Source: Amoebophrya sp. A120
Taxonomy: Eukaryota; Protista; Dinoflagellata
Assembly (NCBI GenBank): GCA_905178155.1
Contig: CAJINV010000001.1
Span: forward strand, 13,780,664-13,844,663
Length of the DNA stretch: 64,000 bases
Direction: 5' to 3'
Position numbers and translations under genes: made by a program. This document shows, one piece after another, positions 10,482-58,900 of the stretch. Within the stretch, counting starts at the first letter, position 1. Each line of letters begins with the position of its first letter. Below the pieces are notes generated by a model. The model did not search any database. It had not been told where the DNA came from and worked only from the letters and a program-made list of their open reading frames with translations.

Positions 10482-13356
10482 ATGAGTGCGATCGGTGACT
10501 CTTGGGCGCTCGGCTATGGCATCCGGGACAAAGACGCGTCCGCGGTCTTGCAAGCAGCCACGGCGCAGCGGCTGCTCGATAATGGATATGCGGATCACAG
10601 CACGACCGCTGGGCAGAACGACCAGCAGCAGCTCTCCTATGTGTGCAACGCTCCGGTTGCCGCGTTTTACGACTTGGATCTCCTGGACCTGCATTTTCAA
10701 AACCTGATCAAGCTGTTCGGACCAACTTTCGTACACTGCATGGCCATCAAGTCTTGTCCCTTTTCCCGAATTCTGCAGCACGTGCACGCCGCCCACGGAT
10801 TTGGCTTTGAGTGCGCATCTCTAGGCGAGGTGTGGAACGCGAAAAATGTGATTGCCGAGGTGCAGAAAAATTGTGGTGTCATTGGCGGGATAAAACCCTT
10901 TTGTTCCCATTCTGCTCCGTCTGGTAGTGTCAAGCCTCTTGTTGAGAAGAAAGTAATATCAACGGAAACCGCCCGGAGTTCTTCGCAGAAACAGAACTTC
11001 ATCGTGTTCGACAGTCCGTGCAAGACGGAGCGGGAACTGCACTTCGCACTGGAGCACGGGATTTACATCAATATGGACAATTTTGCGGAGTACGAGCGCA
11101 TGAAGGGCATTGTGGCGAAGAGAGAAGCGGAAGCGAAGCTTATCTCTGCACCAATCGGACTGCGCGTCAATCCGCTCGTGGGCGCTGGTGAGATCAAGGC
11201 ACTGAGTGTGTCCACCCCCGATAGTAAGTTTGGCATCCCAATCACGGAAAAAGACGAGCTGCTCCGCGCTTACCAAGAATCCCCCTGGATGAACTCGCTG
11301 CACGTGCACGTTGGCAGCGGAAAGATGGGCTTGCACGTTCTCTCCGCCGGGATAAGAGTGGTGGTCGATTTGGCCAAGGAGATAAATGCCCGGGCTGGAA
11401 AAAAGCAAATCCAATACCTGGATATTGGGGGCGGCATGCCGGCCAACTACTTGTCCGACCGGATTCACCACGGTTCTTACAACGGCGACGAGCCGCTCTT
11501 GATAGAACACAGTGAAGACGAGGACGGCCGCGGGCAGGAGCATCCAGACGAGACTACATCAGAAGCTCAAAAGGACCCTCAAATAAATAGATTCTGGTCT
11601 TTCGAGGACTACGCGAGCGAGCTGCGCAGCAAAGTGCCAGAGCTTTTTAACAGCGAATTCCCTTGCGTCGTCACTGAGTTCGGCCAAAGTTTGACGGCAA
11701 AGCTGGGTTTTCTTGCGAGCCGCATTGAGTATCTGAAAAAGCCCGGAAACATCGCTATCCTGCATTTCGGCGCCGACTGTTGTCCCAGGCAGTGCTACAC
11801 GACCGCGCACACACGCCGGCTTGCGGTGTTCACATCGGATGGGAAAGAATTCAGCGCAACGAGGACTGGAACATCAAACACAAAGTCTAAGTTTTCCTTC
11901 GCCGGGCCACTTTGCTTTCAGGGGGACTTTCTTGCCAAAGACGAAGAGTTTCCCGCGGAGTTGCAGGTGGGCGATTTGTATCAAATGTAAAAATGTCTGG
12001 CGGGTCTGGAAGATTCTGAGACTTGTGATGCACGTTTTGCATGACCCATGATGTCTGTGATGCATGCCCTAGCATCACAGATGTTTTGAGGGCATCTTTA
12101 TGCCTATTCCTATGCCTATCTCACCTCCAGGGGGGGCGCGCGGACCTCGCTTGCCATCTCGTTTGGTTTGTGAAAGTTCCAGCCTCTCATGATGACGCGT
12201 AAAAAATCCATTTTACAGCTACCGCTTCGCTTTGCAAACACCGCATTCGAGGTAGTGCTGACCTGTTTTGTACCGTAATACGCAATTGTCTGACATTTCA
12301 AAAAAACAAAATTATTTCATCTTCTCGTCGCCATCATAAGTACCTTGAGGTGCCGCACACCTCTATCTCTAGTTTCTTGTTGATTACTTCTCGCTCGTTC
12401 GGTCGCGCATGTGCGGTGCAGCCCGCTCAGAGTTTTTTGTTTTTCATGCGACTCTGCAGCCCTCACGCATAAATTTTTGCATGTTTCAAGTCCTTGGACT
12501 TTTATGGGCTCACGCACATCCGAGATCGGGGGGGTGGGAGGGGGTCCTCAAGCCAGAAAAAAACCTCTCCAAGTGAAAGTAGGGGAGTTCAAGGTGCCTA
12601 TTCCGCATGACAAATGCCCTCTCCGCGTAGCAAAAATCGCATTGCCCTTGCTGCTCATGCAATACAGATTTTTTTGGAATCCAAAGGCAGCATCACAAGT
12701 TGCATTCTTCCAGACCCAGACATTTTTACATTTGATAATTTGGTGGTGCTTAAAGACACGGGCGCGAACAGCATCAGCCTCTTTTCTCGACATTGTTCCC
12801 GATTGTGTCCTATCAAATGTAAAAAAGTCTGGGTCTGGAAACTTGTGATGCTGGGTGGCGTCTCATGATGAGGCTACAGATGCTGGCTCAGCATGACAAG
12901 TTTCTGAGTTCCTAGGTGTTGCCTATTCTGCATGACAAACTGCGCTTCTGCATCACAGAAAAACGGAGCTCTTGGGTAACGTGCATGACAGATTTAAGAG
13001 TCATGCCAGACAAGCATGACAAACATGAATTCTTCCAGACCCAGACATTTTTACATTTGATATGTCCACCGGTGATCGGATTTCGTAGGCCAGATGAGAC
13101 CTCTCCGGACGTCGTTAAGTTCTACGAAATCAAGCCCAGAGAGCGGCTGGACGAATTGTGCGCGTTCTGGGGCGGGAGTAGCGGTACAACTGTCATGGGT
13201 GGTGGTGGTGACCAGTCGACGGCAATAAACAGAGCGAGTGGAAGACGAGATAGTTACCTGATAACCCCCACAGAAGAACCGTGTTGTACTTGCTCTTGCT
13301 TCGACTTCGTGCCTCGTTGGCTCCTCAAAGCCGGAATTAAGCTCTCGAGCGTTTAA
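10482..13356 (+). CDS. Group IV PLP-dependent decarboxylase (diaminopimelate/ornithine decarboxylase family), interrupted by two TIR elements
   Basis: Motifs AIKSCP (PLP lysine), FECASLGE, HVHVGS, LDIGGG, EFGQSL and FAGPLCFQGD. After removing 11979-12742 and 12811-13067 the frame reads VGDLVVLKDTGANSISLFSRHCSRLCPPVIGFR to the stop at 13356. Confidence 0.85.
11979..12737. mobile_element. TIR element / non-canonical intron E1 (family A), 759 bp, TSD ATTTG
   Basis: Left end TATCAAATGTAAAAATGTCTGG..GGTCTGGAAGA, right end TTCTTCCAGACCCAGACATTTTTACATTTGATA; ATTTG at 11974-11978 and 12738-12742. Confidence 0.92.
12111..12594. mobile_element. Nested ~484-bp insertion inside E1, flanked by 10-bp direct repeat TGCCTATTCC
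   Basis: TGCCTATTCC at 12101-12110 and 12595-12604. Removing the insert and one repeat leaves 265 bp, close to siblings E2 (252 bp) and E7 (263 bp). Confidence 0.65.
12811..13062. mobile_element. TIR element / non-canonical intron E2 (family A), 252 bp, TSD TGTCC
   Basis: TATCAAATGTAAAAAAGTCTGGGTCTGGAA ... TTCCAGACCCAGACATTTTTACATTTGATA; TGTCC at 12806-12810 and 13063-13067. Confidence 0.93.
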
Positions 13357-14434
13357 GAAGAAGTAGATAAGTACTTATGTGGTTATGTATTGCGAACCGA
13401 GAACAGTGATGGCACTCACGTCAGCAGGACGGAATTCGTTGTGCTATCGGAAGCTCCTGCGGCAAACAGACACCTGACTTGCTTTGCGTATACTGCAAGA
13501 AGTGTTCGCCGTCTTGTCTGTCCCACGAGAAGAACGCGACAGGCGTAAATCGTTGTAGCTATGTAAGTATTTCACTCCAATAAAGGCAACATTGCGTGGC
13601 GTCTTTGTCTGTCGTCTAGTTTCTCGTCAGTAAGCGCTTGGCAACCTTCTCCCTCGTTTCAATCTACTTACCGCCCTTGATTGTACTTTTCTCTGTGCGT
13701 GCACGTGTCCCCAAAAGTCTGTCTTAGTCGTTGCGAGCGCAGTGCCTGGTAAGTTGCATCTCCTACTTTTTCCTATGTGCGGCCCACATCTTCAAACGAG
13801 TTCCAGTGATGAGCTGCATCTGTGGTCCCAATCGAGTAGTCTGAGATGCGTTAGACACCACAGCCAATGCCATGTCATTATTGTGACTTCTCTATCCCAT
13901 TCCCTTGTCGAGTTTGAAATTTATATTATATTTAAGTGTAACCTAGAGAAAAACTAACTGTATACCCCCCACGCAGGAGCTTTTCGTCTCATTCCAAATG
14001 ATTTTGACTACAGAATGTTGCTAGACCACGGAGTTCTCTTCAATTTATGTGTCTGGTTTGTAGTTGTAGGTAAAAGTGCATCCATCCGCGATATCGTTGT
14101 GGATGAGAAAAGCAAAGGAGAGTTTTTGAATGAATAGTTTACTTAAGATCATTGTGATCATGGATCATCTCCCTGTCGTGTAAGTCGACTCTACTTCGTG
14201 TGAAAAAAGTTGGCTTCTTTTGTTGATTTTGTGTGAGCTTTTTATATTTTGCTACAAGCGGGGGCCAACGCTCTCGTACTACGTAATTTTGCGGCGCCGG
14301 CTTTTCGTCTTGCTTGTCGTCGGTGCCGACTTAGAAAAAGGACGGAGAATCCAGCGCTTCGGGCGTGTGCTGTTTTGTGCTACTTGGAAAGAGTTTTTTA
14401 AAAGGAAGGCGAGGATCAATTTTGGAGCCATATC

Positions 14435-17400
14435 ATGTACAGCAATCAGGATGCAGCTTCGTCGCCCGGAAAAACAGACTCCGCGTCGGGCGGACGTCGA
14501 CGAGAGAACAAGGGAAAGGGTCGGAAAGGTAAGATCAATACCAGTGCAGCAGTATGTTGTGAATGTTCGACTTTGAGCAGGGCATTGAAGAAAGTCACAG
14601 CTGCTCGAAGAATCTCTTTCTTTGGCACAAAACGTAAAACTTTTGCAACATCATGTGTAAAACTTACTTTCAACTACATTCGCAGGTAAAGGCAAAGAAG
14701 GTGGTCAACAGCAGGGAGCCCCTGCTTCTACCACCGGTGCTGCAGCTGCATCCACTAGCTCTTCACAATCTTCTGCTGCGCCGAAGGATCAGCAAAGCAA
14801 GAAGAACAGCCAAAGCGAGGACCATTCCTCGACCAAGGCCTGGGAGAACAACACTAGCAATGTGATTTACCGCAAGAAGCAAGTTCCGACGAGCGGCGGA
14901 GCCACAACTAGTGCAGCCAGCACTGGAACAAGCAACAAAGAGTCTACTTCAGCTGCGACGGCGAACTCCGCATCGCACAAGAAGAAAGACGAGCACGTCG
15001 GCAGTGGTACAAATAGTAGCTCGTCGAGCGCCAATGCTAGTAGCCATTCGTCCTCCTACCAGGAGGCGGCCACGAAGGCAGATCGCAGCAATAACGCTGC
15101 GGCTTCGACACCGCAAACGAGCAGCAGCTCGTCTAGTTCGTCCTCCAGTGCGGTCAACAGCCACCTGGAGGACAGCTCGAAGAAAGCGAAGAGGCGCAAC
15201 CGAGGGGGTGGTGGAGGTGGGGAAAAGGATGGTAGCCACCAGAGCGGTGCTCAACAAAAGCAGGAGAGTAATAGCAGCTATAAACAGGACAAGGACCACT
15301 ACAATGCGACGACGTACAAGGAAAAGGACAGCAGTGGCTACAGTAGCAAACAGGAGAAGCTGCAAGAATCTTCAGGTGCCTCGTACAGGGACCGGGAGAA
15401 GGAATACCGGAAAAAGGACGAACACTACTACAGCAACACGAAAACACCAACGTCGACGCAGTCTGGCGGGGCGGGAAATAGCAACCGAGCAGGTAACAAT
15501 CAGACCTCGTCTCACTGCTATTGCCATTTATGGAAGTGCGATTAATTTGAATTGTGTTTGGGATGCGATTGTCATTGTGGGTCTGCCTGCTGCAAAACTA
15601 AAATTTCTATAATCATCTGCGAGCGTATCGAGAACAAGTCATGAAATCAGCTCGAACTCACAACGTTAATATCAGACGCAAGCGACAGCTACCGCGACAA
15701 GCGAGATGACGCTTCGTCGAGCAAAAACGCCGGCAGCAACACGGGTCGGAAGAAAAAATCAAGTTATCGAGAAAAATATGAGAAGGATTACTCATCTTCA
15801 AAGGAGTATCGGGAGAGCAGCAAGGGCTATGGAAGCAGCCGAACCGGGGAAGTGAATCTCCGGGTAGAGCTTTGCTGCTTCACGCCATCACTGTATGAAA
15901 TATCATATCTTCTGCATGATGTTGTTTTGACCATCTTACAGTTGTGATAAAAGCTACAGCTGCGGCTGCCATACTTGCTTTCGGCCTCCAGCCGAGAGCC
16001 TGACCATGTAGCGAAGTTGTCACTTTCCGTACGACGCTTATCACTCCCCAGGACCCGGACTACGGCTATCACGTCAGCGGGCGCCGCCGGTCCTCGCGAT
16101 CCGGCGCTGCGACGCCGAGCGAGGTCGGCGACCATCCGGTGTCATCGAGCAAAAACTACACCACCGAAGAACCTTACCACCAGAATGGGCGACCTACTTC
16201 CACCTCCAGCTACAGAGAGCGCGGCGCAACTGGCGGTGTCCCAGCGCCGTCCTCCACCGTCACGGGCGCAAGCAGTTCCGCGTCGTCCTCCTCGAATGCG
16301 GGCGAGATGAACGAAGGTACGGGCAACGGGGCGACTTCCTACTCTGGGGAGGATGACGACGGAGCCGGTCGCTACACGAGCAACAGCCACGCTGGCGGCA
16401 ACAACAGGGGCGGGGAACAGGACCACCAATATCATGGTGACCACCAGCAGGGGGCTTCAACACGTGGGGGCGGATCATCTTCTGGGGCTACAGCCACGAC
16501 CTCCAAAGCGACGTACAAGAGTTTTGTCGACCAGAGTAAACAGCAAGACCAAGGCTACTACAAGAACAGCAACAAGAACTTCAATGGATCGGGAGAACAC
16601 CACCAGCTGCAAGAGGATCACTACAGCAAAAGCGGAAACAAGAATTTCCTGCCCTCCCCAACGGAGAGTTCGGGGAGCAGCGCTTTCAAAGGATCAAACT
16701 CCGGAAGCAGTTATCCAGGAAAAAAACTGTGTGAGTGTAACTTTGTAGGAAGAACAGCATCACAAATTCGTTTTGCATTACAGGGAAAACCTGTCATGCG
16801 CAGCTAGTACGTGGAAACACATATGATAGTAGCCTATGACGCAATTCCAGCATGATGAGTGTAACTGTTTTGCATTTTCTGCATCACAGATTTACACTTA
16901 CGCAGTTTTTTTCTTGCATAGCAGTTCCGTGTGGACGAATAAGAATCACGGTGGATCGTCTGCGGCAAGCGAAATAGACAGCGACTACCATAGAAGCACT
17001 TACGACGATGGCGCGGGCTCCGGAATACAGACAAACGATGGTGGTTCTTACAGCGGGTTTAATAATCACGGTGGTGGTAGCAACAACAATTACGGCAACG
17101 GACCTATCAATCTAAACAACGGGACGACCTCGGGCAGCCAACATTTCAACGGCACCACCAGTCTCGATCTCCCGTATCAGCAGAACCAAAACAGCGGGAG
17201 ACCGCCCAGAGGCCCCATGGACAGAAAGCCCAGTAACGGCGGGAACGGAAATAACAACTACGGAAGCGGCTACAACTACGATAACGGGCGGGGGATGGGA
17301 AAAGGTATAAACTGACTATTTGCAGAACTTCAACTTGCCTCTAGCTCCACTGTGGGGTTATTGATGTTATTGATGACTAACAGACACGAGGGTCGGGGCA

Positions 17401-24596: not shown

Positions 24597-24620
24597 GAGC
24601 GATATTTTCATGGCATCTTG
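24563..24620. repeat. Perfect 29-bp tandem duplication
   Basis: TGTGAGAGCGATATTTTCATGGCATCTTG twice (24563-24591 and 24592-24620). Confidence 0.9.
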
Positions 24621-27654: not shown

Positions 27655-30151
27655 ATGGCGTCACTGACGTTGCGGTCCCAGCAGGGGAGGGGGAGCGGCC
27701 GGGGCTCGAATAAATCATCCGGATCAACATCAAAAAAATACCAGCCCGCGGACACAACGGCGACCTACGCATTTCAATCCACGCAATCGAATTTGTCATC
27801 AAAGTCCGGAACAGGAGTAGCACCGTCATACGCCGGGAACTTCTCCACCATCGTGAACATCGTCAAGAATGTCGTGGGGGCAGGGTAAAAAGTGATTTGC
27901 TATATGTACATTGATTGAGTTTGGTGTGGTCTGTGCCGGGTTTGTTCTACATGGTCTACGAAGTCAATGGGTCGTGCCGCTTGTCATTCATTTTTCGAAC
28001 AAGAGGGTTTTTGTAGTTTCCTGAAGTCGTATCAAAGACCGCGCTCGAAAATAATTGTCGCGCACATCATGTAAGTAACCTAAACAATTTAAATCTCGCA
28101 TCGCAAAATGTGAAGATTTCCATACATCACAACAGGTTGGTCTCTATGCCACTCACCCTCTACGACGGGACGCCAGCGGTCGCCTACACCTGGCTGCTGA
28201 TTATCGGCGTGTTGAACTGCTTCGCGTTTTGGGTGGTTGCCGTGATCTCCGAGGGCGCGTGCAACACGTACGGGCAGCTGTGGGAGCGGACCATTGGGAA
28301 GAAGACCCGGCTGCTGATGGACATTTTTCTGCTGGTGAACGGGATCATCACGTGCATGCAGTATCTGATTGTGATCTCCGACTTCGTGCCGAAGGCGATC
28401 CCGCAGGTGTTCGGGGATGGCGGGTGCCTGGGCGCGGTCCACGCGGAGAAGGGCAGTTTGGCGGGCGGCGCCACGGAGCGGCTGTACACGGTGCTGTTCG
28501 CCGGGTACGGGATCATTCTGCCGATCGCGCTGTTTTCCAAACTTGACTTCCTCAAGTGGCCGTCCTTCATCGGCGTGGCGTTCACCATGTTCGCCGTCAT
28601 GTACGTCGTGTACGACTACGCCACGCGCGGGTACTATTCCGCCCAAGTGCCGCGGAAGGACCCGGCCACCGGTGCGTTCGATGTGTACAACGACGGGGCC
28701 TGGACGGACCAGAAGAACGACGGGCGGGGGAACTTCGACTTCTTGATGATGATGAGCATCATGAGCATCTACTCCTCCACCTACGCCTGCCACTACAACG
28801 CGCCGCGGTTCTACCGGGAGCTGGGCCCTAGTCGGAGTCCGGGCCGGTTCGCCATGATCACCATCACGTCCTTTGTGCTCATTCTCGGCATCTTCGTCAT
28901 GTTCGTCATTTGCGGCTACGGCCGGTTCGGCGGGAGCATCCAGGGGAACGTGTTCCTGGGCTACCAAAACGTGCCGGCCTCGGAGAAGGACGAAGTCGCG
29001 ATCAAGATCGCCTGGATGGGCATGGCGCTTTCCGTGATGACCAGTTACCCCTTGCTCAGCAACAGCGCGCGGGCGGCCCTATACGAAATCTTCTTTCCCT
29101 ACACCGCGGATAAAAGTCCCACCTGGATCTACGTCCTGGTCACGGTGCTCTTCGTCACGCTATCCGTTGTCATGGGCTGGCTCGGACCGGACGTGGCGCT
29201 GCTGGGGCAGATCAAAGGTATAATTATTACCAAGTACGTACTTGTTTGAAATTGGCCGCTGCAGTGACAGTGCCTGTGACGCTGACAATTCTTGAAAGAA
29301 GCCACGCGTTATTTCTGCAGCTCCGTTGTTTCTGTATTGAGTTTTAGTTTCGCCGTCACTAGCACTAGCTGCTCCAAGAAGTACAGGGGTTGTCATCTTG
29401 TTGCTCACGCACATCTTTTGCAGCGAGGACGAAATGATATTCGCGTCTTTTGTACTTAAAAAAATCTCGCAAAGTACTAAACTACGATCTTCACGAAAAA
29501 TCTCTAACAGGCGCCACCACCACCGTCTCCTTGTGCTCTATCTTTCCGGGACTGATGCTTCTGTTCAAGGTATTTCAGGACGAGAAGGCCGTCGAGGATG
29601 GCCCAGCTGCTGCGGATGGGGACAACGAGCCGCTTTTGCAAGACGAGGTTTTGCTCACGCAAGGTTCTCAATTTGCCAGCGACTATTTGGACACTGACCT
29701 CCCCCAGGAGGACCCCTCAGAGAAACTGAAGAGCTCGAGCGAAGATGAGGCGAACCTGACCCGCGTGAACATGGTTAAGGGTAAGGGAGCCACTTTCAAA
29801 ACGCTCGCTTGGGTGCTGATCATCATCTCGTCGCTCATGGCCGTCGTCGGAATCACCACCGTGTTCCTGAAGCAAGCGGACGTGATCGGAAGGGCGAAGC
29901 CCCTGGAGGCGACCCTGCCAAACAAGTGGAAGAACGTCGATTACGACCTGAGCGCCGACGATCCGGACGGAAAGGCGTTTCTCACCAAGCTGTTGGAAGA
30001 CGGCTATAGCTCCACCTCAAGTTACTGGAGAAACGCCTGCGCGTGGAAGACCGCCCCGGCGGGGAGCGGGCAGGAGAAGAGCTACCAGCTTCTCATCAAT
30101 TACAACCCGGCATCGCCCATCGCGATCCGCTATGACGAACTCTGCCAATAG
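27655..30151 (+). CDS. Amino acid transporter (Aa_trans / AAAP / SLC38-like), 3 exons
   Basis: Motifs NIVKNVVGAGLVSMP, TYGQLWERTIG, YACHYN, GYGRFGGSIQGNVF and MTSYPL; ~11 hydrophobic segments. GT-AG introns 27885-28135 and 29218-29510. Confidence 0.88.
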
Positions 30152-32633
30152 AGGATCTTCGCAAACTACTTGTTGTCGAGCTGCAGAAGAGCAGATACAC
30201 ATGCAGCTGCGGGTGATGTGAAAATCCATATTACGATTTCTAGAGAAAGGTTCGTAGCTACATGATACGTATCTATGTATAACCTTGATCATATTTGCGA
30301 ATACGACAAAGGCATCGTTTGCTATATACGTTATATTGATCAAACATTGGCTACGTAAAACTGAACTTTTTTGTGCATGCTCGTCGTCTCCATAGAGCCG
30401 TGAGCATCACGTTTGTGGTACAAAAATTTGGCGAAACTTAGCACTCTTTCGACTGCAAGTAGATCTAACGAGATTTCGGATAGAGAAAAATTAGTGGAAG
30501 GAAGGATACTTACGCTGTCTTAAGCGCACAAAATTGAATTTAGAAATGAACCCAAAAAAGACGTGACGACCCAGCGATGAGGACTTTTTACCAATTTTTC
30601 TGAAACGTACATTTTCAGTGGGAAGCACGAGGATGATTGAAGCCGTAGAGCCTCGCGCAGTTAGTCCCTGCGCGCGCGAGGACTGAAAGATCGAGTCTCC
30701 TCTCATTTTGACTCCTCTGTTGATTCAATAGGGTTGTAGTCTCGCGAGTTTCCCTCGTGAAGAAGCGTGCTGGTAGGTAGGTAGTTGGTAGTCGCGTGCC
30801 CGTGGTGCATAGCGTTGCGTCGTTCCCTGCCCCGGTCTAGTGAGCCACATGCAGCGAAGAGGCCACCGCCAACCGCCACCCAATGAAGTGAAGTGAATAA
30901 ATTGAAATTGAAATTATCATCTTCGAATCCTGTTTGCATCTGCATTTGATTGCATGCAAATGCCACCAGCCGGCCACTGGAGATCTTTTCCAAAAAAGGC
31001 CGCACCGCTCGTACTGAATTCGAGACCTCTGGGGGTGGTCGTCGAGCGTGGCTGGCTGAAAGACACACAAAAGTTGACGAACATTCACGGCCACACAAAA
31101 TTTTGAATCCACTGGATCCCGTACGAAATTCAGTATTAATAGCATCAGTTTTTTCATGGCGCTACGTACCGGCTCCGGCTGAGAGCGTCCCGTGCGCGTG
31201 GCATTCTTATCGTTGTTCAATCATTGTGCCTCAAGGTAGCAGCGCGTCGGTCCGAAAGAATGTAAGTAAGACTGAATTGAAGATCGGCATCGGCATTATA
31301 CACTTCCGGTTGCGATATTTTTTTTTTCCAATTTTGTTTTTTTTGTCCTGTGGACCCTATCCCTGACGCTGAGTTAGAGCTGGTGTCGTTCGTTGTTCTG
31401 GGTTCCCTGATAAAGATAGCACCCGTCAGGAGAAGCTTGCCTCGCATATTTTTTTTTCGCAGCCTACTTATACTTATTTCTTTTTTTCTTAAGAAGCGCA
31501 CGCGCAATTCTGTATCTATTCTTTTTTGGCGTCAGCAGCTGAATCAATATCCGTATCCGATTCTGAGCAGCACGGTTCACGTGCATGTTCATTGCGTGTT
31601 GAGGAAAACGCTACAGGACTTTGTTGCCTTTGGTGGTGTTGCCATTTCCGAAAGCAACAACTTTTGTTAGAAAACAAAAACGCGCCGATTGAAGCAAAAA
31701 AAGAAAACAGAAAACTTGTGGCAGGTAGTTACCACGTCCCTTTTTTTCACCCCTTGAAAGCCCAACTAGTATCCATAGAAGATGCAAGCTGAGGGGGGAT
31801 GAATAGATATAGAATGCGCACTAGATGATCTACAAGACCCTTTTCTTCGGACGACGCCAAACTTGTGTATGGTAACAAGACGGCGCTCGTCGTCGCGCTG
31901 GTGAAGATTTTTGGAGATTGTTGTTTTGTTGTGATAACAGATTCACTGTCTGCATACGGGTGGCAGAGTCGTCAGGAGTTGTATGTTCAGTTTCGTCACA
32001 CCGGCACTCGAATCGGAGTCTAGAAAACACACCACCAGTTGTCCGATTCTATTAGGCCACAGCAGCCATAGGAAGTTTGCAGTTTCACGTAGGCAGGAAA
32101 GTGTAGTAAATAATTAAGAAAAACAAGTAAGCACATTAGGCAGAAAGTCATGTTCAAAACTGTCACTCACACCATCACCATGCAGCGGAGTGTTGATTTT
32201 TAGGTACAAATAGATACTGTAGAAAATGGAAATGGAAAAAGTACTGTAAGAAGCTGCGCAACTGGAAAGAAGTTAAAGATAAAGAAGTTTCAGATCGTTC
32301 TTCCTGTTCGGAAAAATTGGCTCGACAAATACGAGGGAGACAAGAGGAACTAGCACTAAGAAGCCCATTAAGCACGCCTCTCTCTAAGTACTTGCGAAAA
32401 CAAACAAAAAGTCATCTCACGCCCCCGAAAATTTTGAGAACAAACCTTGGACATCAACGGATTTACAATTATACTGAATAACGCGAACTGCCAGAGCCAG
32501 ACCATAAGTATTAATTAGAATCGAGGAGGCGTGGGAGATTGGATCACAAAAACATGGGGTTAGCCGCGTCGGCGGGAGCAGATCGTCCTCCAGGGCCGCG
32601 GCGGAAAAAGTAGATTGGCGATACAACCACTAT

Positions 32634-32919
32634 TACCCAGTGCAAATATGCCTGGGTATATGGAAAGTTGCATATGCTATTTCTTGTTCGTACTTAGTCT
32701 GTGATTGGTGAGTGCACTGCAAGACGCAGCCACGCATGACAAGTTTTTCAGCTGCTATGTGTTGCATATCCCGCGGGGCAGACTGCGTATTTACGAGATA
32801 GGCGATAGGATTCCATCTTCGGGATCGGGCTCATGTATCACAGACAAAGAGTTCAAGGTCATTTGACACAAGCACGACAAATTATCTTGTGCCCGACCCA
32901 GACATATTTGCAATGCATA
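32634..32919. mobile_element. Degenerate family-A TIR element E8 outside any intact gene; no TSD preserved
   Basis: Left TACCCAGTGCAAATATGCCTGGG; right GACCCAGACATATTTGCAATGCATA (rev-comp TATGCATTGCAAATATGTCTGGGTC, close to the E7 left TIR). Internal GCATGACAAG at 32734. Length ~286 bp. Confidence 0.7.
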
Positions 32920-33341
32920 GCAGTCGTCGTACCTTCACTGAAATTTCGACAGCAGATGGCTAGCCGTGTGCAGCAGTTTGCGGCCGAGCGCCCGTCGGTC
33001 CCACTCCCGCAAGGATACCAAAGCGAAAAATTTTCCCCTCGGCCCCACATTCAGAATGAAATTTGTGATGCCAGATTTGTGTATTACAAGTACGCAAATC
33101 GTATTGCGCTTTCGCATGAGGGACGGCTCTCATGTTGACGGTCCAACTACAGCATCAGGAAGCAACCGCGCAATGCGACGGATACCTCTGACAGTGCCTT
33201 TTTTCAAGACATGGGCGATTTGGGGCCACGAATCAGCAGCACAGGCTTTCCTTTTGAATATGGGGATTTGGGCGGGTTTTCCCCTGCGATACAGGAGCTG
33301 CTTTCACGGCCAGCCATTTTCACCACCACCCCCACCGCCTC

Positions 33342-44999: not shown

Positions 45000-45008
45000 C
45001 ACGTCTTC

Positions 45009-45477
45009 NNNNNNNNNNNNNNNNNNNNNNNNNNNNNNNNNNNNNNNNNNNNNNNNNNNNNNNNNNNNNNNNNNNNNNNNNNNNNNNNNNNNNNNNNNNN
45101 NNNNNNNNNNNNNNNNNNNNNNNNNNNNNNNNNNNNNNNNNNNNNNNNNNNNNNNNNNNNNNNNNNNNNNNNNNNNNNNNNNNNNNNNNNNNNNNNNNNN
45201 NNNNNNNNNNNNNNNNNNNNNNNNNNNNNNNNNNNNNNNNNNNNNNNNNNNNNNNNNNNNNNNNNNNNNNNNNNNNNNNNNNNNNNNNNNNNNNNNNNNN
45301 NNNNNNNNNNNNNNNNNNNNNNNNNNNNNNNNNNNNNNNNNNNNNNNNNNNNNNNNNNNNNNNNNNNNNNNNNNNNNNNNNNNNNNNNNNNNNNNNNNNN
45401 NNNNNNNNNNNNNNNNNNNNNNNNNNNNNNNNNNNNNNNNNNNNNNNNNNNNNNNNNNNNNNNNNNNNNNNNNNNNN
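45009..45477. other. Assembly gap (N run)
   Basis: Run of n characters. Confidence 1.

Positions 45478-45530
<53 letters not shown>
45478..45530. repeat. (CT)n microsatellite, probable retroelement 3' tail
   Basis: Pure CT repeat running directly into the right TSD copy. Confidence 0.9.
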
Positions 45531-45535
<5 letters not shown>

Positions 45536-45688
45536 ATTCTTATTGTTTTTTCTTGTACTAGCCGCTGCCTCGCCCTAACTCACGACCACTGAAATATTTT
45601 TTCACGGGTTGCTGCGACAGCGAGGAATGATGCACGCGGTCTCTTGATTGTTTTGCTTTCGGCAGCACCTGCAATCTCGTCATTGATT

Positions 45689-47218
45689 ATGTCGGCGCTC
45701 TGCAAAGATAATGTATCTCTATCTTCGGCGGTACAGCAACATCTTCAATCCCAAGTCACGGAACTCGAGCAGAAAGAGCCTATTATGGATTGTAAGGCGA
45801 GCACATCGCAGCAGCAGCACCTCGCAATGTGGCGGGCGCAACAGGACCAGCTGCGGCAAGCGGTGGTAGAAGAAGATGATGGCGTTTTTTTGCAGTCTTG
45901 CCGCTACGTGGCGGGGCTGGATCTGAGTTTCGTCCCTCGTAAACAGGAGCACTGTAGTAGTACTCCAGCTTCGTCGGGCTCTGCTTTGAGCGAAGAGGTG
46001 GAACCTAATACTAATAGTGGCGGTGACGGAATGAAATTATTAAGCGAGGCCTCGAAAGTTGAACGCGCAGTCGTTGGCTTTGTGGTCTTCGAGGTTGTGC
46101 GCTTACCTTCTGCCCTTGCACAAGTAGCGGAAACACCGGCAAAGAGCGCACCATGTTCCGAGCTTCCCGCAGAACCCTGTTCTCTGTTTGAGCTGCTGGA
46201 GTCGGTAGAAAAGGCAAGCCACTCAAACCACAGCTCGGAAACTCAAACTGTTGATCTCGGGGTGCTACCACCAGAAGGCGCAGGCGGTTTGCAAAAGAAA
46301 GTGAAAGCCAAAGACTCCTATGTCGAAACTCCGGGAGTACCTGCGTCATATGGAATTTCTATCGGCAAGGGCAAGAAATGCCATTACGAGCTGCGGCTGC
46401 TCTATGAACACTACGAACAGGTGGAGCTTGACAAGGAAATTCCCTACGTTGCCGGATACCTGGCCTTCCGAGAGGTTCCGCACTACGAGAAGGTTCTCGC
46501 CGCTTTCTTCGTGTCGAAGGTTGCAACAGGAAAAGGTATTTCGCCGCAAAACTTGATTGTTTTTGTGGACGGGAACGGTCGTCTGCATCCGAACGCATGC
46601 GGAGCGGCGTCGCACTTAGGCGCTGGCACTTTTGACGGTCTTCTCACCACGATTGGCGTCGCGAAAAATTTGCATTCCTTTCCCGGGCTGCGAATCCAAG
46701 GTGTCGCAATTCCTCATATAGAAAGCAACGCGACAATGCCGTCGGCGCACGTCTTGGACGCCAAAGAACTGCGTCAAATTCTGGAGAACCGGAAGATGGC
46801 GAAAATAAACGAAAAAGAGGCCGCTTGTTTGGCCGACGGCTATCCTGCGTGGGTTGTTCCCCTAGAAGCAGCTACTACTTGCCCTTTATCTGCGCAACCA
46901 GCCACCTTCCTGCCGAGAGGACTGGCTGTCGCTGCGCATGGGAGCAAGAAGCCCATCTTCGTGTCAGTTGGGCATCGAATAAGCCTGCGGACCAGTCTTG
47001 CGGTTGTATCGCTGTTTCAGGGACACTTTCGCATCCCAATTCCAACACGTGTAGCTGATCTTCGCTCTCGAAAAATCATCGAGAAAGAAATTATAGGCTC
47101 TGCAAATGGAGGAACAGGTAAAAGCAGTGGGAACACGGCGAAGAAAGAAAAAACTGGTCCTGTACTAGCGCAAGATCCGAGCAGCCACGCCATGTTGTGG
47201 ACGTGGATCCATTCTTGA
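45689..47218 (+). CDS. ENDOV: Endonuclease V (inosine-specific nuclease) with low-complexity insertions, single exon
   Basis: Motifs VAGLDLSF, PYVAGYLAFREVP, VFVDGNGRLHP, GAASHLG, TIGVAKNL, KPIFVSVGHRISL and RIPIPTRVAD. Confidence 0.92.
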   Translation: MSALCKDNVSLSSAVQQHLQSQVTELEQKEPIMDCKASTSQQQHLAMWRAQQDQLRQAVVEEDDGVFLQSCRYVAGLDLSFVPRKQEHCSSTPASSGSALSEEVEPNTNSGGDGMKLLSEASKVERAVVGFVVFEVVRLPSALAQVAETPAKSAPCSELPAEPCSLFELLESVEKASHSNHSSETQTVDLGVLPPEGAGGLQKKVKAKDSYVETPGVPASYGISIGKGKKCHYELRLLYEHYEQVELDKEIPYVAGYLAFREVPHYEKVLAAFFVSKVATGKGISPQNLIVFVDGNGRLHPNACGAASHLGAGTFDGLLTTIGVAKNLHSFPGLRIQGVAIPHIESNATMPSAHVLDAKELRQILENRKMAKINEKEAACLADGYPAWVVPLEAATTCPLSAQPATFLPRGLAVAAHGSKKPIFVSVGHRISLRTSLAVVSLFQGHFRIPIPTRVADLRSRKIIEKEIIGSANGGTGKSSGNTAKKEKTGPVLAQDPSSHAMLWTWIHS

Positions 47219-47832: not shown

Positions 47833-50800
47833 ATGCCCGGCACAGCGACTACCACCGAGCTGCTGTTCTATCCGGAGGAGGATGAAAAATCCGAGAAGGA
47901 CAGAAAAGTTGGATTTTGGGAAATCGCTTCGATTGCAAGTTTCAATTTTCCCTTCGGCGCGCTCTGCGGACCCATGGGCGTCGCGATCTTGCCCCTGGAG
48001 GCCGAACGACTGGCGCCGGATATCACAGTGAAAAGTGTTAACGTTAACGAAACTTGTCATGCAGTAATGCACCACAAAACATGCCTGAATTTGTAATGCA
48101 TAGCATGCATATTGGGCTACATTTGTGATGCATGACTGCAATCTGTGAAAATTTAACAACGTCAACACTTTTTCTTGTGATACCGGAATCGTCCAGCATT
48201 ATGCTTGGCTTCATGATGGGCATAGTCGGCGTTACGCAGCTCGTATGCCCACTAGCTGGCATCCTGAGCGACATGCATCGCAGCAAAATGGGGAAGAGGC
48301 GCCCCTTTGTTTTCGGTATATTAATAGTGTTACCAATGGGTGGAAGTTCGGGTTCACCCGGCGTTTAAGTCGCGCAGATCATGTCATTCTCAGTGTTCAT
48401 TCGCGTACTTTGTCTGCTATGACAAAAATTGTTTGTGTTTCGCGATTTGATTGGTTTGGGCCCACCGTTGAAATATCTGCCTTCACCAGACGACCACTAG
48501 CTCCAAATCCTCCGGCGCTTTCAGGTGGCGGCATCGTGACGGTTGTGAGTCTGGCCGGGATGTGGTTTTGCTCGCTGGAAAAGATGAAGTACGAATTCAT
48601 TATCTGCCTCGTTGCGTCCATGACGGGACTGAACGTGGCGTACACCGCTTCCTACGGACTGGTACCGGACCTGATCCCCACCAAGGACCAGGGCATGGCC
48701 AGCGGCATCGTGGGCGGGCTCCAGCTGTTCGGCAGCCTGACCGGGTTCATCTTCCTGATCGTCACCTACAGCTACGACTACCACATAAATTACCTCCTCT
48801 ACGCCATCTACCTGGTCATGTCGCTCCTCCTGATCGCCGTCGTCGCACAGGAAGAGGACACCAGCAACTTGATTCGCCCGCCCTTCAGTTGGCGGCAGGT
48901 GCTAAGCTCCTATACCATCGACTGCTCCGAGAGTTACGACTTTCTCTGGGTCTTCGTCGGGCGGACGTTTTACTACGTGGGCATTTCCTGCCAGAGCTTC
49001 GTGCTGTTCTTCGTCCGCGACGTGATCAACGTGGAGGAGGTGAGTGCGCAAAAGTACCACGTGGGCGCGATGGCGCTGCTGGCGCAGCTGGTCGGCGGTG
49101 TGGTCGCCGTGCACGCGGGGAAGCTATCGGACAACAAGTATTACAATGAAAAATGTCCCCACACCCGAACTTGGGAGCATTTGTATTGCAAACCTTTCCA
49201 AATGAAACATTCGCTCTGTTGCATCTATCAGCATCACAGGTTTCCAATCGTGAATAGCAAAAATTTGTATTGCAAAAGACCCCAGCAAGAGCGGCGCTTG
49301 TCATGCAAGCGATGCGATACACGAACACGCCTAGACTCTGCATCAGAAAGATTCATACTCCTTTCATGCATGACAAAAAGTTTTCATTTAGAAACTTCGC
49401 ATCACAAATTTTTGCATCACAAATTTTTGCAATTTCAGGGGTGGGGGGCACTTTTCACTGTAATAGCAAGTATTTCGGCCGCAAACGCTTGGTGTACGCC
49501 GCCTGCACCATCATGGCCTGCGTGTACGTGCTGTGGATGGCCACCCCGTGGATCTTCCGGAACGAGATCCGGTTTTACCTGAATCACCTGGATTTCGACC
49601 AGTACTTTAAGAAATTTTTGCCCAAACGGGCAAGACAGTACTTGACACAGGACTACGTGTACGGGAGCAGCGGTAGCGCGGAAGACGCGAGCGGGCCACT
49701 GGAGGGCAGTATGGCGCACGCCAGCATGTCCTACAAGAATTACAATGCCGCTGCAGTAGATGGAGGTGGGGAGGATGATGTGATTGGCCTGGGAAGGACG
49801 GAAAATGGAGGAGAAGACGGAAAAGCAGCCTCCTCGTCAAGCAGAGAAAGGAGGAGAGACTTGGCCGCTAAAACGTCCGCGAAAAATAATGAATCCCGAC
49901 CGCGCAACGAGTGGCTCGGGCAGGGGGAAAAGCTGCTGCGGCCATACGATAAGGACGCTTCATCGGTTGTCGAGAAGCAAGGACCAATAGCAAGCTTTTG
50001 GAGTGATGTGGCAGCCTCCTTCTCCACAGGTAATGCAAGAAAGAACAGCAGTAGAAGAAAAAGAAGAAAGCTCGACGTCGAGAAGACAACTGAAAAAGAA
50101 ACCCGTGATAAGGAAAGCAGTCCAGAGGAAGCGCAGGAAGAGTCCGAGTTTTCAGCGCTGAATATGGCACCAACGTCCTACCGCAACACCTTGCCTGCCG
50201 CTAGCGGCGCCGCCGCCGCTGCATTGGTATAGTGGAGTCTTTCAGGTTTGGTGAATAACAAAATGCTGCGAATTTGGAGATCATCGAATTTCCAGAAATC
50301 TCAATCTTCTGGATAAAATAAAAGTACCTACGTGAGATACGTACTTCGCTCGTACGCTTTTCTCGCATCAGACGAGCACTGTTTATTGCAAACTCGAGGA
50401 TGAGGCTGAGGACTTGTTAAATCACTCGAAATCATAAAAAAACTGCATCAGGCCGAGGCAAGCGTGGACAGCAGCAATACCAACACCGCACCAACGGACC
50501 CGGAAACAACTACGGTCAGCACGACCGTGCAGGATGACGTGGAGGACAGCCCGGAGTGGGGCGTGTTTAACCTCCCCGGGAACAGTCGCACGACCCAGGG
50601 GATGGAGCTGATGTTTCTCTATATCCTGAGTGAAAACGTCCCCACACCAGAGTTGTAATGCAGATTTGCAAGCACAGGAGCACATCCCCATGAGAGGCAT
50701 TTCCCATCGTGTTTTGGAACTTGTAATGTTGCAAACAGGATGAGGAGATGGATTTGTTATGCGGCTTCCCTTGCTAAGCTGCACTACAGTACAGCATGCA

Positions 50801-52304
50801 ACTTGTCATGCGTGACCCCCAAAACTTCAAGGTTTGTGTTGCAAAATCCCCATCTTGACTCTGGTGTGGGGACGTTTTTAAATATGATACTCTACGGCTG
50901 CATGGCGGTTTACGGTGTGGGCAACGGGGCCTACCTAGCCGTCGACCTCGCGCTTGCTTTGGACTGCCTGCCCGATCCGGAGACCTCGGCGCAATCGCTC
51001 GGCATCTGGGGCGTGTCCGCCTTTCTGGGTCTCGCGATCGGGCCGCTATTGTGGGGGTAAGTCGCTGATGTTGTGCTGCGCAAAGTGATCTATCGATCGC
51101 CGGAAATTTTCACCGTGACCGGGCTAGCGCGGGCACTTTTTGGGAATCGCGGCGCGGTGGTGAAATCACAAGCGCCCTGCGTTTCCCCGAGCTAATGCTC
51201 GCCGAAGGCCTTACCGAAAATGACACATCTTTGCAAAAAAAGCAGCCGGAGACTTTCTCCGTGACCGGGCTAACGCGGGCACTTTTTTGGAATGGCAGCG
51301 CGCTGGTGAAATCACAGGCGCTTTGCGCTTCCCCGAGCTGTTTCGTGCCAAAAGCCCTACCCGGGAAGGCGTTTTTTTTCAAAAAAAGCAGCCGGAAATT
51401 TTCTCCGTGACCGGGCTGACGCGGGCACTTTTTTGGAATGGCGGCGCGCTGGTGAAATCACAGGCGCTTTGCGCTTCCCCGAGCTGTTTCTTGCCAGAAG
51501 CCCTACCCGGGAAGGCGTTTTTTTTCAAAAAAAGCAGCCGGGAATTTTCTCCGTGACCGGGCTAACGCGGGCACTTTTTTGGAATGGCGGCGCGCTGGTA
51601 AAATCACAGGCGCTTTGCGCTTCCCCGAGCTGTTTCTTGCCAAAAGCCATACCCGGGAAGGCGTTTTTTTTCAAAAAAAGCAGCCGGAAATTTTCTCCGT
51701 GACCGGGCTAACGCGGGCACTTTTTTGGAATGGCAGCGCGCTGGTGAAATCACAGGCGCTTTGCGCTTCCCCGAGCTGTTTCTTGCCAAAAGCCGTACCC
51801 GCGAAGGCGTTTTTTTTCAAAAAAAGCAGCCGGGAATTTTCTCCGTGACCGGGCTAGCGCGGGCACTTTTTTGGAATGGCAGCGCGCTGGTTAAATCACA
51901 GGCGCTTTGCGCCTCCTCGGGCTGTTGCTTGCCAAAAGCCGTACCCGGGAAGGCGTTTTTTTTCAAAAAAAAGTGCCGGAAATTTTCACCGTGACCGACC
52001 TAAGGCAGTCACTTTTGAAAAATGGATCCTCAAATGGGCTTTCTTTGTGTTTTGCAGAAGAGACAGGGTATTGAGCAAAAGACAACGTCGAACGAAAACG
52101 AAAACGGCAGTTGTGATGTTTCAGTTACTGCATGCAAAAAAATTCCAATCTACCTCCAGGTCCGCGCTGGAACTCTCCGGTGGCGAAACTATTGGGGATG
52201 TGCGGGTCTACCCCTACACGGGCTACGCCTATATGCTGCTTGGCGGTTGTGTGTTTTGCTTCCTCTCTGGTGCCGTGGTGCGAAAAATCAAGAAAAGCAC
52301 GTAA
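47833..52304 (+). CDS. MFS transporter (GPH/SLC45 sucrose-symporter-like); 7 exons, 3 GT-AG introns and 3 TIR-element introns
   Basis: Motifs PLAGILSDMHRSKMGKRRPF, GLVPDLIP..DQGMASG, AGKLSD..YFGRKRL and YGVGNGAYLAVDLALALDCLP. GT-AG introns 48316-48524, 50227-50451 and 51057-52159; elements E4, E5 and E6. Confidence 0.85.
48021..48182. mobile_element. TIR element / non-canonical intron E4 (family C), 162 bp, TSD CCGGA
   Basis: Left TATCACAGTGAAAAGTGTTAACGTT; rev-comp of right TATCACAAGAAAAAGTGTTGACGTT. CCGGA at 48016-48020 and 48183-48187. Removal gives ERLAPESSSIMLG. Confidence 0.9.
49139..49465. mobile_element. TIR element / non-canonical intron E5 (family D), 327 bp, TSD ACAAG/GCAAG
   Basis: Left TATTACAATGAAAAATGTCCCCACACC; rev-comp of right TATTACAGTGAAAAGTGCCCCCCACCCC. 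Flanks 49134-49138 and 49466-49470 differ at one base. Removal gives GKLSD(N/S)KYFGRKRL. Confidence 0.88.
50622..50889. mobile_element. TIR element / non-canonical intron E6 (family D), 268 bp, TSD CTCTA
   Basis: Left TATCCTGAGTGAAAACGTCCCCACACCAGAGT; rev-comp of right TATCATATTTAAAAACGTCCCCACACCAGAGT. CTCTA at 50617-50621 and 50890-50894. Removal gives ELMFLYGCMAVYG. Confidence 0.9.
51101..51997. repeat. 146-bp tandem array (~6 units) inside a GT-AG intron of the MFS gene
   Basis: Unit ...CCGTGACCGGGCTAACGCGGGCACTTTTTTGGAATGG...AAATCACAGGCGCTTTGCGC...; near-identical ORFs recur at 51287, 51433, 51579 and 51725 (period 146). Confidence 0.95.
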
Positions 52305-55801: not shown

Positions 55802-56400
55802 AGAAAGACTGTTATGTGGACGAAGGTAAAGTAGAGCTAGCACGTGGCTCCTGCTCTCACGAATGCTATCATAAAGAACAGAAAGAATATCTCGCTCTAG
55901 AGTTCTTGCACAACGACATAGTACGAGATTGAAGTGAAAGCAAACAAGTGACGAAGATGTCCGTCTTCCATGGGTTCCCTCGTGCGATGGAATTTTCCGC
56001 GAATCCTTGGGCTGTTCCACCGTGGCCACACACGACAGTAAGGAGAGAAGAGCGCCTGCCTCTTGAGGAATTCCAGCGGATATGCAGAGTGAACAAGACT
56101 ACAACTCCAGGCCACTCTAAGAGCAAATCTTACGAGTAGACTCAGCCACCTGAAAGAATCGACGCTTTTCATGAAAACTTAAACTAAGTACATGAACCAA
56201 AGACAACAAAGCCCGAGCTATCTGCATGCGAGGAGCGACTTCAATTGAAGCGCTCGAAGAGGACGCATGAGGATATTCCTCCCCTGCGGAGGGAGTCCCC
56301 GCGCTCCTGTGCATCAAGCACGCTGCTTCGCAAAATGAAGGCTGCACCTAGAACCACAAAGATGGCACACCAGCAAAGATTCCGGCCACGGCCAGGAGCA

Positions 56401-58900
56401 ATGCAGCGATCGCGCTCGACGCTCTTCGCCACCCTGGCCCTCGGCTCACCATTCATCTTTCCGGTTCTTCAACTTCCCCACTTTGTCCGCGCGCAGTCCC
56501 GATTCGCGATCGATCTCGGGGATGTCGACCCGAAGAAGCCGCCCGAGGAGGCCTCGGCGTTTTTCAACCCGACGACACAGCAGCTGCAGGTGCAGGCCGG
56601 CGAGGCGCACGACGTCGCCCCCTGGGCGCACGCAAGCTTCAAGGATTCCCTGGAGAAAACCGGGTGGACCGAACTACGGGTAAAGACCTCCACGGACGGC
56701 GGAATCCCCGCAGACCTGAAGATGTACGCGGCCGGGGTGCTGGAGGGACTGCTGTCCGCCGTGCGGATCTCGCAGTTCTTCAGCAACGCGCTGCGGACCA
56801 TCATCCGCACGGAGGACGGCGGGAAGGCGCTGAAGAACGTGATGAACATGCTGCAGGACGCGAACCTGTTCGTGCAGAAGAAGACGAACTTCCTGCCGGG
56901 GAAGGACGCGCCGCCCAGTCCGGACCCCTACTGGAAGCAGGTCCGCTACGTCTACGCGCAGGTTCGGGGCTTGCGGGACGGGTACAACCTGGCGGCGGCG
57001 GCCCACGGCGTCAAGGAACTGTCCATGGCGGAACTGTTGCTGCTCAATAGCCACGGCGAGCTGGGCGAGCTGCTAGAGGCCTACAGTCCGAATCGTGCCA
57101 TCGCCCGGAGGCGCTTTCAAGCCGCGACTGCGGTCTTCTTGCAGGAGAAGGCGACGGGGGATGCGGTGGAGATGCGCGACGCGAATCAAAAACGGGCATT
57201 TCTCGCGACATCCTCGAAGGAGCGGCAACAATCTGATGAATCTAGCGCCTCAAGGAGCAGTAGTACAAGAAGCGTGCAGCAATACGACGCCAAGGAGTTT
57301 CCTTTTCTCGCAGCTATTGCGGAACATGAACGGGAGCGGGCTGCGAAGAGTTCCGCCGGTTTTTCGCCGCTAGTGCACGATGTTGAGGAAAGTTCGTTCC
57401 TCTCATCATCTTCTGCTCCCTCTACCAGGTCAACAACTACTACATCGTCAACTAAAGACGCCGCCTCGACCGCCGCCCTTGCCGACAAGTTCTGGGAGCG
57501 CAAACTGGCCCGCACCGGGCACTGCAGCGCGCTGGTGCGCATTACCCCGGACAACAAGGATCTGTTGGTCGGACACACCTATCAGCTGCAAATATGTCTG
57601 GGTCTGGAAGAGTGCCAGCCTTGTCATGCAGGTTTTCCATGACCCATGAGGTCTAGCATGTAGGACATACCATGACAGATTCTATGAGAGTTCTATCATG
57701 CCTATCCTGCGTGAGAAACTGCCTCGCGATTAGGTCAAAAGTGGACCGCTTTTGGCAATCATGCAACACAGATCGTATACATGAATCAGATTTAGCATGG
57801 CAAGTTGCTTTGTTCCAGACCCAGACACTTTTGCATTTGATAACACCACGTGGGACGACTACGCGAAGATGACCCGCGTGTTCAAGTACTACGACTTCCC
57901 CTTGGACCGGTGGACGGCCTCGTCCGTCGTGGGCATGAGCTCCTACCCGGGGTGCGTCTCCTCCACCGACGAATTTTACCTGCTGTCGGCCGGGATCGTG
58001 CTCGGGGACACCAGCCTGGAGGTGCTGAACGCCGAGGTGTACGACCGCATCCCCGAGGGGCCCAAGCTGCCCAGCTTTTTCCACGTCATGGCCGCCAACC
58101 GCATGGCGCGGACCGCGGGGCACTGGGCGGCGCTGCTCACGGAAAACAACAACGGGCTGAAGAACGCGCAGTGGTTCGCCGTGGACTACAACCGCTTCGT
58201 GCCCAAGGCGGACGTGCCCACGAACCTGCTGTGGGTGGTGGAAACCATGCCGGGGCTCAGCGAGAAGAAGGATCTGTCCTCCCGCCTGATGGACGCCGGG
58301 GAGGTGGCGGACGGGACCGCCAGCAGCAGTTCCGCGTCGCAGGGCCAGTACTTTGCGTCGTTCAACCGCCCGATTTTCCCGGAGATCCGCCAGCGCCTGG
58401 GCCACCAGGACGCGGAAAATTCCTACGGGATTCTGTACTCCGCGGACCGCAACCCGCGGGCGCAGATTTTCGCCAACTGGGTCACGCAGGTGGAGACGCT
58501 CCGCGACATGCGCATGCTGCTGCGCGAAAACAACTACCCGAACGAGAAGTTTTTGGGGCAGGGGGCGGCCACCTGGTCGCTGCACCCCGGGCACGCGATC
58601 GCCGCGCGGCTGGACCTGGATCCGGGTTTGCTCAACCCAAATGGTGCGATTGACGCCAAGGCCGTCAACTACTGCTTGGTACAAAAAATGCAGATGCAGG
58701 TGATCTCCGGCCCGAGCCACGTCAAGCAGCCGGTGTTTGCCTGGAGCCAGGGAAGTGCCTTCCCGGGGTGGCCGCATTTAGGGCTGCCGGACAAATACGA
58801 TTTTCACTGGCGGCAAGTGTCCATCGCGGGGGATAAGGAGGACGAGCTGCACGACTTCGATGACAGTCAAAGTAAGTGTAGCCCTCGCGCGCCAGTGTAA
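56401..58900 (+). CDS. Phospholipase B-like Ntn-hydrolase (PLBD family), interrupted by TIR element E7; start may be 56335 or 56362
   Basis: Signal-peptide-like N-terminus; motifs TGWTELRV, YAAGVLEG, HCSALVRI, DLLVGHT|TWDDY (joined across E7), MSSYPG..SSTDEFY, YFASFNRP, PRAQIF and GAIDAK. Confidence 0.9.
57580..57842. mobile_element. TIR element / non-canonical intron E7 (family A), 263 bp, TSD ACACC
   Basis: TATCAGCTGCAAATATGTCTGGGTCTGGAA ... TTCCAGACCCAGACACTTTTGCATTTGATA; ACACC at 57575-57579 and 57843-57847. Confidence 0.93.

Follow-up and report, generated by a model that had tools for sequence, protein, structure and literature searches.

The window analysed here is a 64,000-nucleotide (nt) stretch of the genome of the marine parasitic dinoflagellate Amoebophrya sp. 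A120 (contig CAJINV010000001.1, positions 13,780,664 to 13,844,663 of the forward strand). It holds nine short elements with inverted-repeat ends, E1 to E9, that interrupt genes, and six of the nine are absent, together with exactly 5 nt of flanking repeat, from assembled RNA contigs. An earlier reading of the sequence (the original prediction) had described E1 to E7; all seven are real, and two further copies that it overlooked, E8 and E9, were located with a profile of element ends. The genes for which a protein family was found and the elements are as follows.

10482 to 13356, plus strand: diaminopimelate/ornithine decarboxylase-family gene (Pfam PF02784 and PF00278), holding E1 and E2.
47833 to 51058 and extending further, plus strand: MFS-type transporter gene (weak match to Pfam MFS_1), holding E4, E5, E6 and two GT-AG introns.
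56188 to 58900 (approximate limits), plus strand: phospholipase B-like gene (Pfam PF04916), holding E7.
11979 to 12737: E1, 759 base pairs (bp), repeat ATTTG at 11974 to 11978 and 12738 to 12742, in the decarboxylase gene.
12811 to 13062: E2, 252 bp, repeat TGTCC, in the decarboxylase gene.
16712 to 16920: E3, 209 bp, repeat GCAGT, in a gene that has no Pfam match, within a coding exon of low complexity.
32634 to 32919: E8, 286 bp, ends TAC...ATA, repeat ACTAT/GCAGT, in the 5' untranslated region (UTR) of a gene starting at 32956.
33016 to 33291: E9, 276 bp, ends TAC...ATA, repeat AAGGA/CAGGA, in the first coding exon.
48021 to 48182: E4, 162 bp, repeat CCGGA, in the MFS-type gene.
49139 to 49465: E5, 327 bp, repeat ACAAG/GCAAG, in the MFS-type gene.
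50622 to 50889: E6, 268 bp, repeat CTCTA, in the MFS-type gene.
57580 to 57842: E7, 263 bp, repeat ACACC, in the phospholipase B-like gene.

The TAT...ATA ends and the coordinates that had been proposed for E1 to E7 were borne out, with 19 to 24 of the 25 terminal bases matching between the two ends. These seven fit the pattern of TAT, seven variable bases and at least three A; in E8 and E9 TAC replaces TAT, at the 5' end alone, and the TAY-N7-AAAA ends persist in E9. The direct repeats were said to be 5-bp repeats that differ from site to site, and they are perfect in six of the seven; E5 has four of five bases (ACAAG/GCAAG), which had gone unmentioned. Among the added copies, E9 also has four of five and E8 two of five. 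In a chance control, six TAT pairs with a perfect 5-bp repeat were found in the window versus none in each of 40 shuffles; inverted-repeat pairs alone (21 versus a shuffle mean of 15) were not above chance. The element plus 5 nt measures 764, 257, 214, 167, 332, 273 and 268 nt for E1 to E7, as previously given; six of these lengths are not divisible by three and E6 (273) carries an in-frame TAA. The four interrupted genes all lie on the plus strand and their frames are opened by removing the element and 5 nt. It also holds that none of the six plus-strand registers of each of E1 to E7 gives the GT-AG, GC-AG or AT-AC ends of canonical U2 and U12 introns. On the minus strand E7 and E2 do have a GT-AG and an AT-AC register, but these were set aside since the genes are on the plus strand. 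Lone end-like motifs at 54662 (minus), 58917 (plus) and 62511 (plus) lack both a family match and a second end with the same repeat, and are probably chance occurrences or old remnants; a candidate at 6259 to 6531 was dropped on the same two grounds.

Removal was followed in assembled contigs of the runs X1 to X4, which derive from one sample. These runs bear no RNA label on record and were presumed to be RNA; their contigs do lack GT-AG introns. The contigs were examined for E3 to E6, E8 and E9. One 2,780-nt contig of X1 skips 167 nt (E4), 332 nt (E5) and 273 nt (E6) as well as two GT-AG introns, and it is this joined form that was assembled, with the full depth of the contig. A skip of 214 nt at E3 was found in contigs of X1 and X3, and skips of 291 nt at E8 and 281 nt at E9 in contigs of X1 and X4; the removal of these three accompanies that of 11 GT-AG introns. 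The element and exactly 5 nt are thus absent in all four of the examined members of E1 to E7, and in E8 and E9, which makes six of nine. For E3 to E6 these are the junctions that had been anticipated, lacking the element plus one repeat copy, and the opposite outcome, in which transcripts retain the elements or use cryptic GT-AG sites, is not what the contigs contain. The expectation that such removal runs beside normal GT-AG splicing in one transcript is realised in the E4 to E6 contig.

The protein data agree with exact removal in the other genes. When E1 and E2 are exactly removed, the decarboxylase translation equals the deposited A120 protein P0001 over all 617 amino acids (aa), and the open reading frame (ORF) before E1 is 100% identical to P0001, a protein named Amoebophrya sp. 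A120. Homologues align across the E1 site without a gap, and at the E1 and E2 sites homologous proteins have no insertions (at the protein level only). The MFS-type gene has an open frame of 690 aa once E4 to E6 and the GT-AG introns 48316 to 48524 and 50227 to 50451 are removed. For E7 the case is made by homology: positions 150 to 184 of PF04916 end at the left junction and positions 185 to 486 begin at the right, and exact removal would place a junction Thr at residue 20 after Cys, as in the processed chains 3fgr_B and 4bwc_B.

It had been claimed that the elements must be removed precisely. The RNA contigs do show the exact form, and this outcome could not have been derived from the sequence alone. 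E5 contains an in-frame GT...AG pair (49138 to 49466, 329 nt) whose use would leave one extra codon, and frame-keeping GT-AG or GC-AG pairs occur within about 30 nt in six of E1 to E7, so precise removal is not forced by the sequence. The E5 pair is not the assembled form: the GT donor falls in the register that starts one base before the element (the -1 register) and the AG lies one base past the element, and the assembled form ends three bases further.

Identical 5-bp repeats allow the border to slide over six positions, and mismatched repeats break the tie. In E5 and E9 (AAGGA/CAGGA) the first base sets the two repeat copies apart, and there the RNA contigs carry the left letter. The two copies at E8 differ at bases 1, 3 and 4 (3/5), and position 32632 is joined to 32924 in the X1 and X4 contigs with one shared letter, so that the left copy is kept through base 4 and 1 nt of microhomology is left. 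This joint places the 5' cut at the terminal TA or 1 nt ahead of it (0 to 1 nt), and puts the 3' cut 4 to 5 nt beyond the terminal ATA. The register is observed directly in E8, E5 and E9 are consistent with it, and its generality is assumed. Because E8 is removed despite three mismatches in five, matching repeats are not needed. A literature search, mostly outside subscription journals, listed no publication in which the cut register is fixed.

When metagenome contigs were scanned for the element pattern, at least 146 stretches were obtained, representing 143 loci (L001 to L143) of one assembly, which were not assigned to A120; of two protein searches bearing on their relation to A120, one was without a match and the other had a best match of 86%, without an A120 record. 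The element families of the window are common to these loci. E2 has at least 83 near full-length matches there, at most 96% identical, with overlapping loci counted repeatedly. All counts of elements from the loci given here and below are among the matches listed. At least 400 paired elements comprise 277 with an exact 5-bp repeat, 53 with one mismatch, 16 with two and 54 with three or more, and the last are probably mispaired. Mismatched repeats (one or two mismatches) are therefore found in 69 of the 346 elements with zero to two mismatches, about one fifth. An exact 6-bp repeat occurs in none of 400 paired elements, at least 240 distinct repeat 5-mers are present, and element lengths are evenly distributed modulo three. 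Canonical ends in any register are found in 48 of 277 versus 46 expected by chance. One locus (L055:111-8568) is the gene for the largest subunit of RNA polymerase II and carries seven copies, six exonic and one inside another intron; the six give a gap-free alignment to a homologue after exact removal, and the seventh lies outside the exons. The elements thus duplicate 5 bp without preferring particular sites and without being filtered for splice signals, and are tolerated in an essential gene.

The transposon origin proposed for the elements stands: they have inverted repeats, a 5-bp duplication that varies by site and no coding capacity that could be found. Terminal inverted repeats, a site-variable duplication of fixed length and no transposase found in the ORFs searched fit miniature inverted-repeat transposable elements (MITEs). 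Transposases were not found in 24 ORFs of four long copies (E1 and three relatives), and of the 199 ORFs in the metagenome loci the 106 longest gave no match to a transposase or integrase family. E1 is an element of the E2/E7 family with about 470 bp of unrelated middle sequence (insert 12111 to 12595), and this insert had no match in the 143 loci. The long elements (L064:6551-7698, L049:5001-6031 and E1) belong to the short families, either enlarged by an internal insert or nested one in another, and are non-coding. A further repeat family of about 250 to 320 bp, not masked by the TAT elements, is present in up to 14 of the loci (L001, L015, L025, L032, L038 and others). An internal GCAT(G/C/T)ACA motif lies at most 70 nt from the 3' end in 146 of 283 listed elements. 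It is branch-point-like, is absent at that position from five of the nine window elements and may be a transposase-binding repeat.

Several other features were recorded in the window. Matches to Endonuclease V (PF04493) and, weakly, to protein kinases occur in long ORFs at 45593 to 47215 and 62472 to 63899, and 45009 to 45477 is an assembly gap of N. Tandem arrays occupy 51099 to 52016 (146-bp unit, 6.3 copies) and 59623 to 60370 (263-bp unit, 2.9 copies). A transcribed repeat of about 270 bp (30644 to 30915), without TAT ends, lies near the 3' end of an amino-acid transporter transcript, and RNA contigs over it continue into unrelated flanks on both sides. A search against Rfam gave no match in the window.

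Farhat et al. (2021, PMC7789003) report that A120 has nearly all spliceosomal proteins and U2, U4, U5 and U6, U1 not being detected, and that the nine predominant non-canonical classes of A120 introns (Table S4) all begin N-T. In the window, donors are GTAT or GTAC in 10 of 13 RNA-confirmed canonical introns (for example 48316 to 48524 and 29218 to 29510), a consensus of GTAY rather than GTRAGT, and the acceptors are CAG in 11, AAG in one and GAG in one. The GTAY consensus may be connected with the absence of U1 that has been reported. In the -1 register, the TAY of the element aligns with +2 to +4 of the host donor GTAY.

E1 to E9 are A120 introner copies. We favour, at slightly better than even confidence, the reading that they are cut out by a host spliceosome that no longer demands an initial G or a terminal AG and is guided by the element ends. 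A transposase from elsewhere would insert the element with the observed 5-bp duplication and without site preference; the available description of A120 families suggests a Ginger-like integrase as the inserting enzyme (PMC12130899). After transcription the ends of most copies are predicted to fold into a stem. If the E8 register is in general use, cleavage would then occur 0 to 1 nt ahead of the terminal TA on the 5' side and 4 to 5 nt after ATA on the 3' side. Read as -1/+4, the intron would be N-TAY...ATA-NNNN, so that the element itself may supply donor positions +2 to +4 in either orientation. Exon joining would restore the messenger RNA (mRNA) that existed before insertion, as the RNA contigs indicate for six of nine elements, and the insertion would therefore be nearly harmless. 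A narrower proposal, which we put forward tentatively and hold at less than even confidence, is that the A120 spliceosome, apparently without U1, reads TAY as donor +2 to +4 and makes its second cut at a fixed distance of four bases beyond the opposite end, whether or not G+1, AG, identical repeats or a perfect stem are present.

The ends of the listed elements bear on this. Among 283 oriented elements, TAY is lost at the 5' end in two and at the 3' end in nine (Fisher p 0.06), and among end variants TAC makes up six of eight at the 5' end versus two of 11 at the 3' end (p 0.02). This asymmetry favours donor mimicry by the element ends, though it is weak and was sought after the fact. Several points weigh against the relaxed spliceosome or its register. 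The spliceosome step is something that we infer, and a spliceosome that ignores G+1 and AG yet remains accurate on GT-AG introns is demanding. The register comes from one element, E8, and both runs that show it, with contig depths of 6.45 and 2.5, belong to a single sample; the E8 joint is flagged, letters between its sides not being excluded (the same flag is on 4 of 11 GT-AG joints), and minor splice forms are hidden by contigs. The E8 data do not separate -1/+4 from 0/+5, and in the -1/+4 reading E8 ends CAG, which could serve as an ordinary acceptor for the 3' cut. The Table S4 classes (PMC7789003) may owe their form to the aligner and its placing of a sliding boundary.

A second explanation is that a separate, non-spliceosomal machine, an endonuclease and ligase or a dedicated protein, cuts at a fixed distance from the stem, as in Euglena; we regard it as possible and on the doubtful side. 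The predicted stems of E1 to E7 are far stronger than those of shuffled sequences (z -4.8 to -8.5, with the ends paired), which is not so for the canonical introns (z -1.6 to +1.9), and terminal stem folds are predicted for E1 to E8. The cut positions give this explanation further support. G is not enriched at the last duplicated base (69 versus 68.2 expected, n=232), AG is not enriched at duplicated bases 3 and 4 (16 versus 16.9 expected, n=232) and the duplication of listed elements shows no drift towards either. The in-frame AG of E5 is ignored, and the short 5' and longer 3' overhangs resemble the Euglena code of N3-stem-N5-6 (PMC12501133, in part). Two results argue against it. The expected number of pairs between the outer 15 bases is 2.1 in E9 versus 9.4 to 14.6 in the others and, though an inner stem remains, E9 is exactly removed, so a perfect terminal stem is not required; and TAY is kept more strictly at the 5' than at the 3' end, unlike a symmetric stem rule. 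The structure-guided route separate from splicing that the original prediction inferred is accordingly weakened, as the removal of E9 with a poor stem and the match of the E8 register to the host donor fit a relaxed spliceosome at least as well.

It is improbable, in our view, that the cut instead slides within the five duplicated bases, with their identity buffering imprecision and both copies under coding constraint. This would account for the perfect repeat kept in 277 of 400 paired elements, for the most decayed repeat (E8) being in a UTR and for the Fig. 3 legend of PMC7789003, in the text available, which describes splice sites whose position varies with respect to the hairpin. In coding-like elements, whose frames a codon model predicted, synonymous changes make up 17 of 27 repeat mismatches (16 at third positions) versus at most 39% if one copy were free (p ~0.01). 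This excess hints that either repeat copy reaches the mRNA and that the register is not strictly fixed, which counts against the favoured reading as well. The synonymous test is small and depends on a metagenome assembly and on the modelled frames, and tests of codon usage and AT drift for the exonic repeat copy gave no clear signal on the 27 mismatches. The contigs of E8, E5 and E9 all carry the letters of the left copy, which speaks against a sliding cut.

A hairpin combined with a short direct repeat is a classic setting for template switching. Reverse transcriptase could then have jumped across the hairpin, the real transcripts keeping the elements or the genes being dead, and the evidence does come from cDNA-derived contigs whose RNA label is presumed. 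We consider this very unlikely, as the E8 joint shares only one letter and its mismatches tell against repeat pairing, the joined form is assembled at full contig depth, and frames open only after removal in the decarboxylase, the phospholipase and the six sites of the RNA polymerase II largest subunit. Excision from DNA at some life stage, of which TA ends and exact removal leaving one repeat copy are reminiscent because ciliate internal eliminated sequences behave in this way, is scarcely credible: the DNA run X5 retains the elements, at depths over E4 to E6 of 4,200 to 99,000 versus a background of about 24 (they are repeated in the genome), none of the three exact E4 to E6 joints is found in 15 of 21 rows, and the contigs that lack elements also lack GT-AG introns and are therefore spliced RNA.

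If the relaxed spliceosome reads TAY in the way proposed, any insertion of the family would be a scarless intron from the outset, whatever its site and whichever way round it landed. About two thirds of A120 introns are removed without GT-AG. A fixed rule of N/NTAY...ATANNNN/ (slashes marking the cuts) would explain the harmless invasion of even RNA polymerase II exons and, if true, would be another case, beside Euglena and tunicates, of splicing adapting to a transposon. With the mismatched repeats, existing A120 RNA-seq could map the cut sites genome-wide and test for mixed registers.

Published work on the A120 genome already covers the elements, with their signature and non-canonical removal. 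Farhat et al. (2021, PMC7789003) describe 29,850 introner copies whose inverted repeats start with TAT, seven variable bases and at least three A, with direct repeats of 3 to 5 nt, RNA support and no transposase inside; their borders are not placed, as the repeats make them slide. The TAT-N7-AAA ends and 5-bp repeats of the window match this class, as the link to Amoebophrya introners had anticipated, and together with the identity to P0001 they make E1 to E7 a sample of the published class in its source genome. The genome, ends, 5-bp repeat, length of about 250 nt, hairpin and RNA-supported removal are the same, as are the mixture with GT-AG introns in one gene and the lack of a transposase, and nothing differs in kind from the class as described in the available text. 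The novelty was therefore overstated, and the deposited gene model already drops E1 and E2. What is added is a register constraint, with E8 narrowing the border to 0 to 1 and 4 to 5 nt, the finding that neither identical repeats nor a perfect stem is needed, and an in-frame GT-AG pair that is ignored.

In the available account of Gozashti et al. (2025, PMC12130899), most A120 families seen are likewise DNA elements with terminal inverted repeats, of about 150 to 330 bp. One of them, family 38, is a Ginger element with a 5-bp duplication and TA/TA termini, of about 810 bp and with integrase-like homology. The 5-bp duplication and TA termini of the window elements are like those of family 38, compared by description only; integrase homology was not found in E1, in three long relatives or in the other ORFs searched. 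The nonconventional introns of Euglena (PMC12501133, PMC11282704, both in part) share a MITE-like origin, a terminal stem, direct repeats that let the border slide, a longer 3' overhang and coexistence with GT-AG introns. They differ in having a CAG/CTG stem, overhangs of 3 and 5 to 6 nt, a purine after the 3' cut and circular excised RNA. The window elements depart from the Euglena signature N3-CDG...CHG-N5-6/R (slash marking the cut), as they end TAY...ATA with overhangs of 0 to 1 and 4 to 5 nt and follow no purine rule, the first exon base after the cut being C or T in several. The favoured reading is modelled on the introns of Fritillaria (PMC11282704, in part), which are likewise MITE-derived with inverted repeats and duplications and whose non-canonical members are removed by an adapted U2 spliceosome. 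Fritillaria introns prefer AG-AC and AG-AT ends, whereas the last two bases in A120 are whatever the target site supplied.

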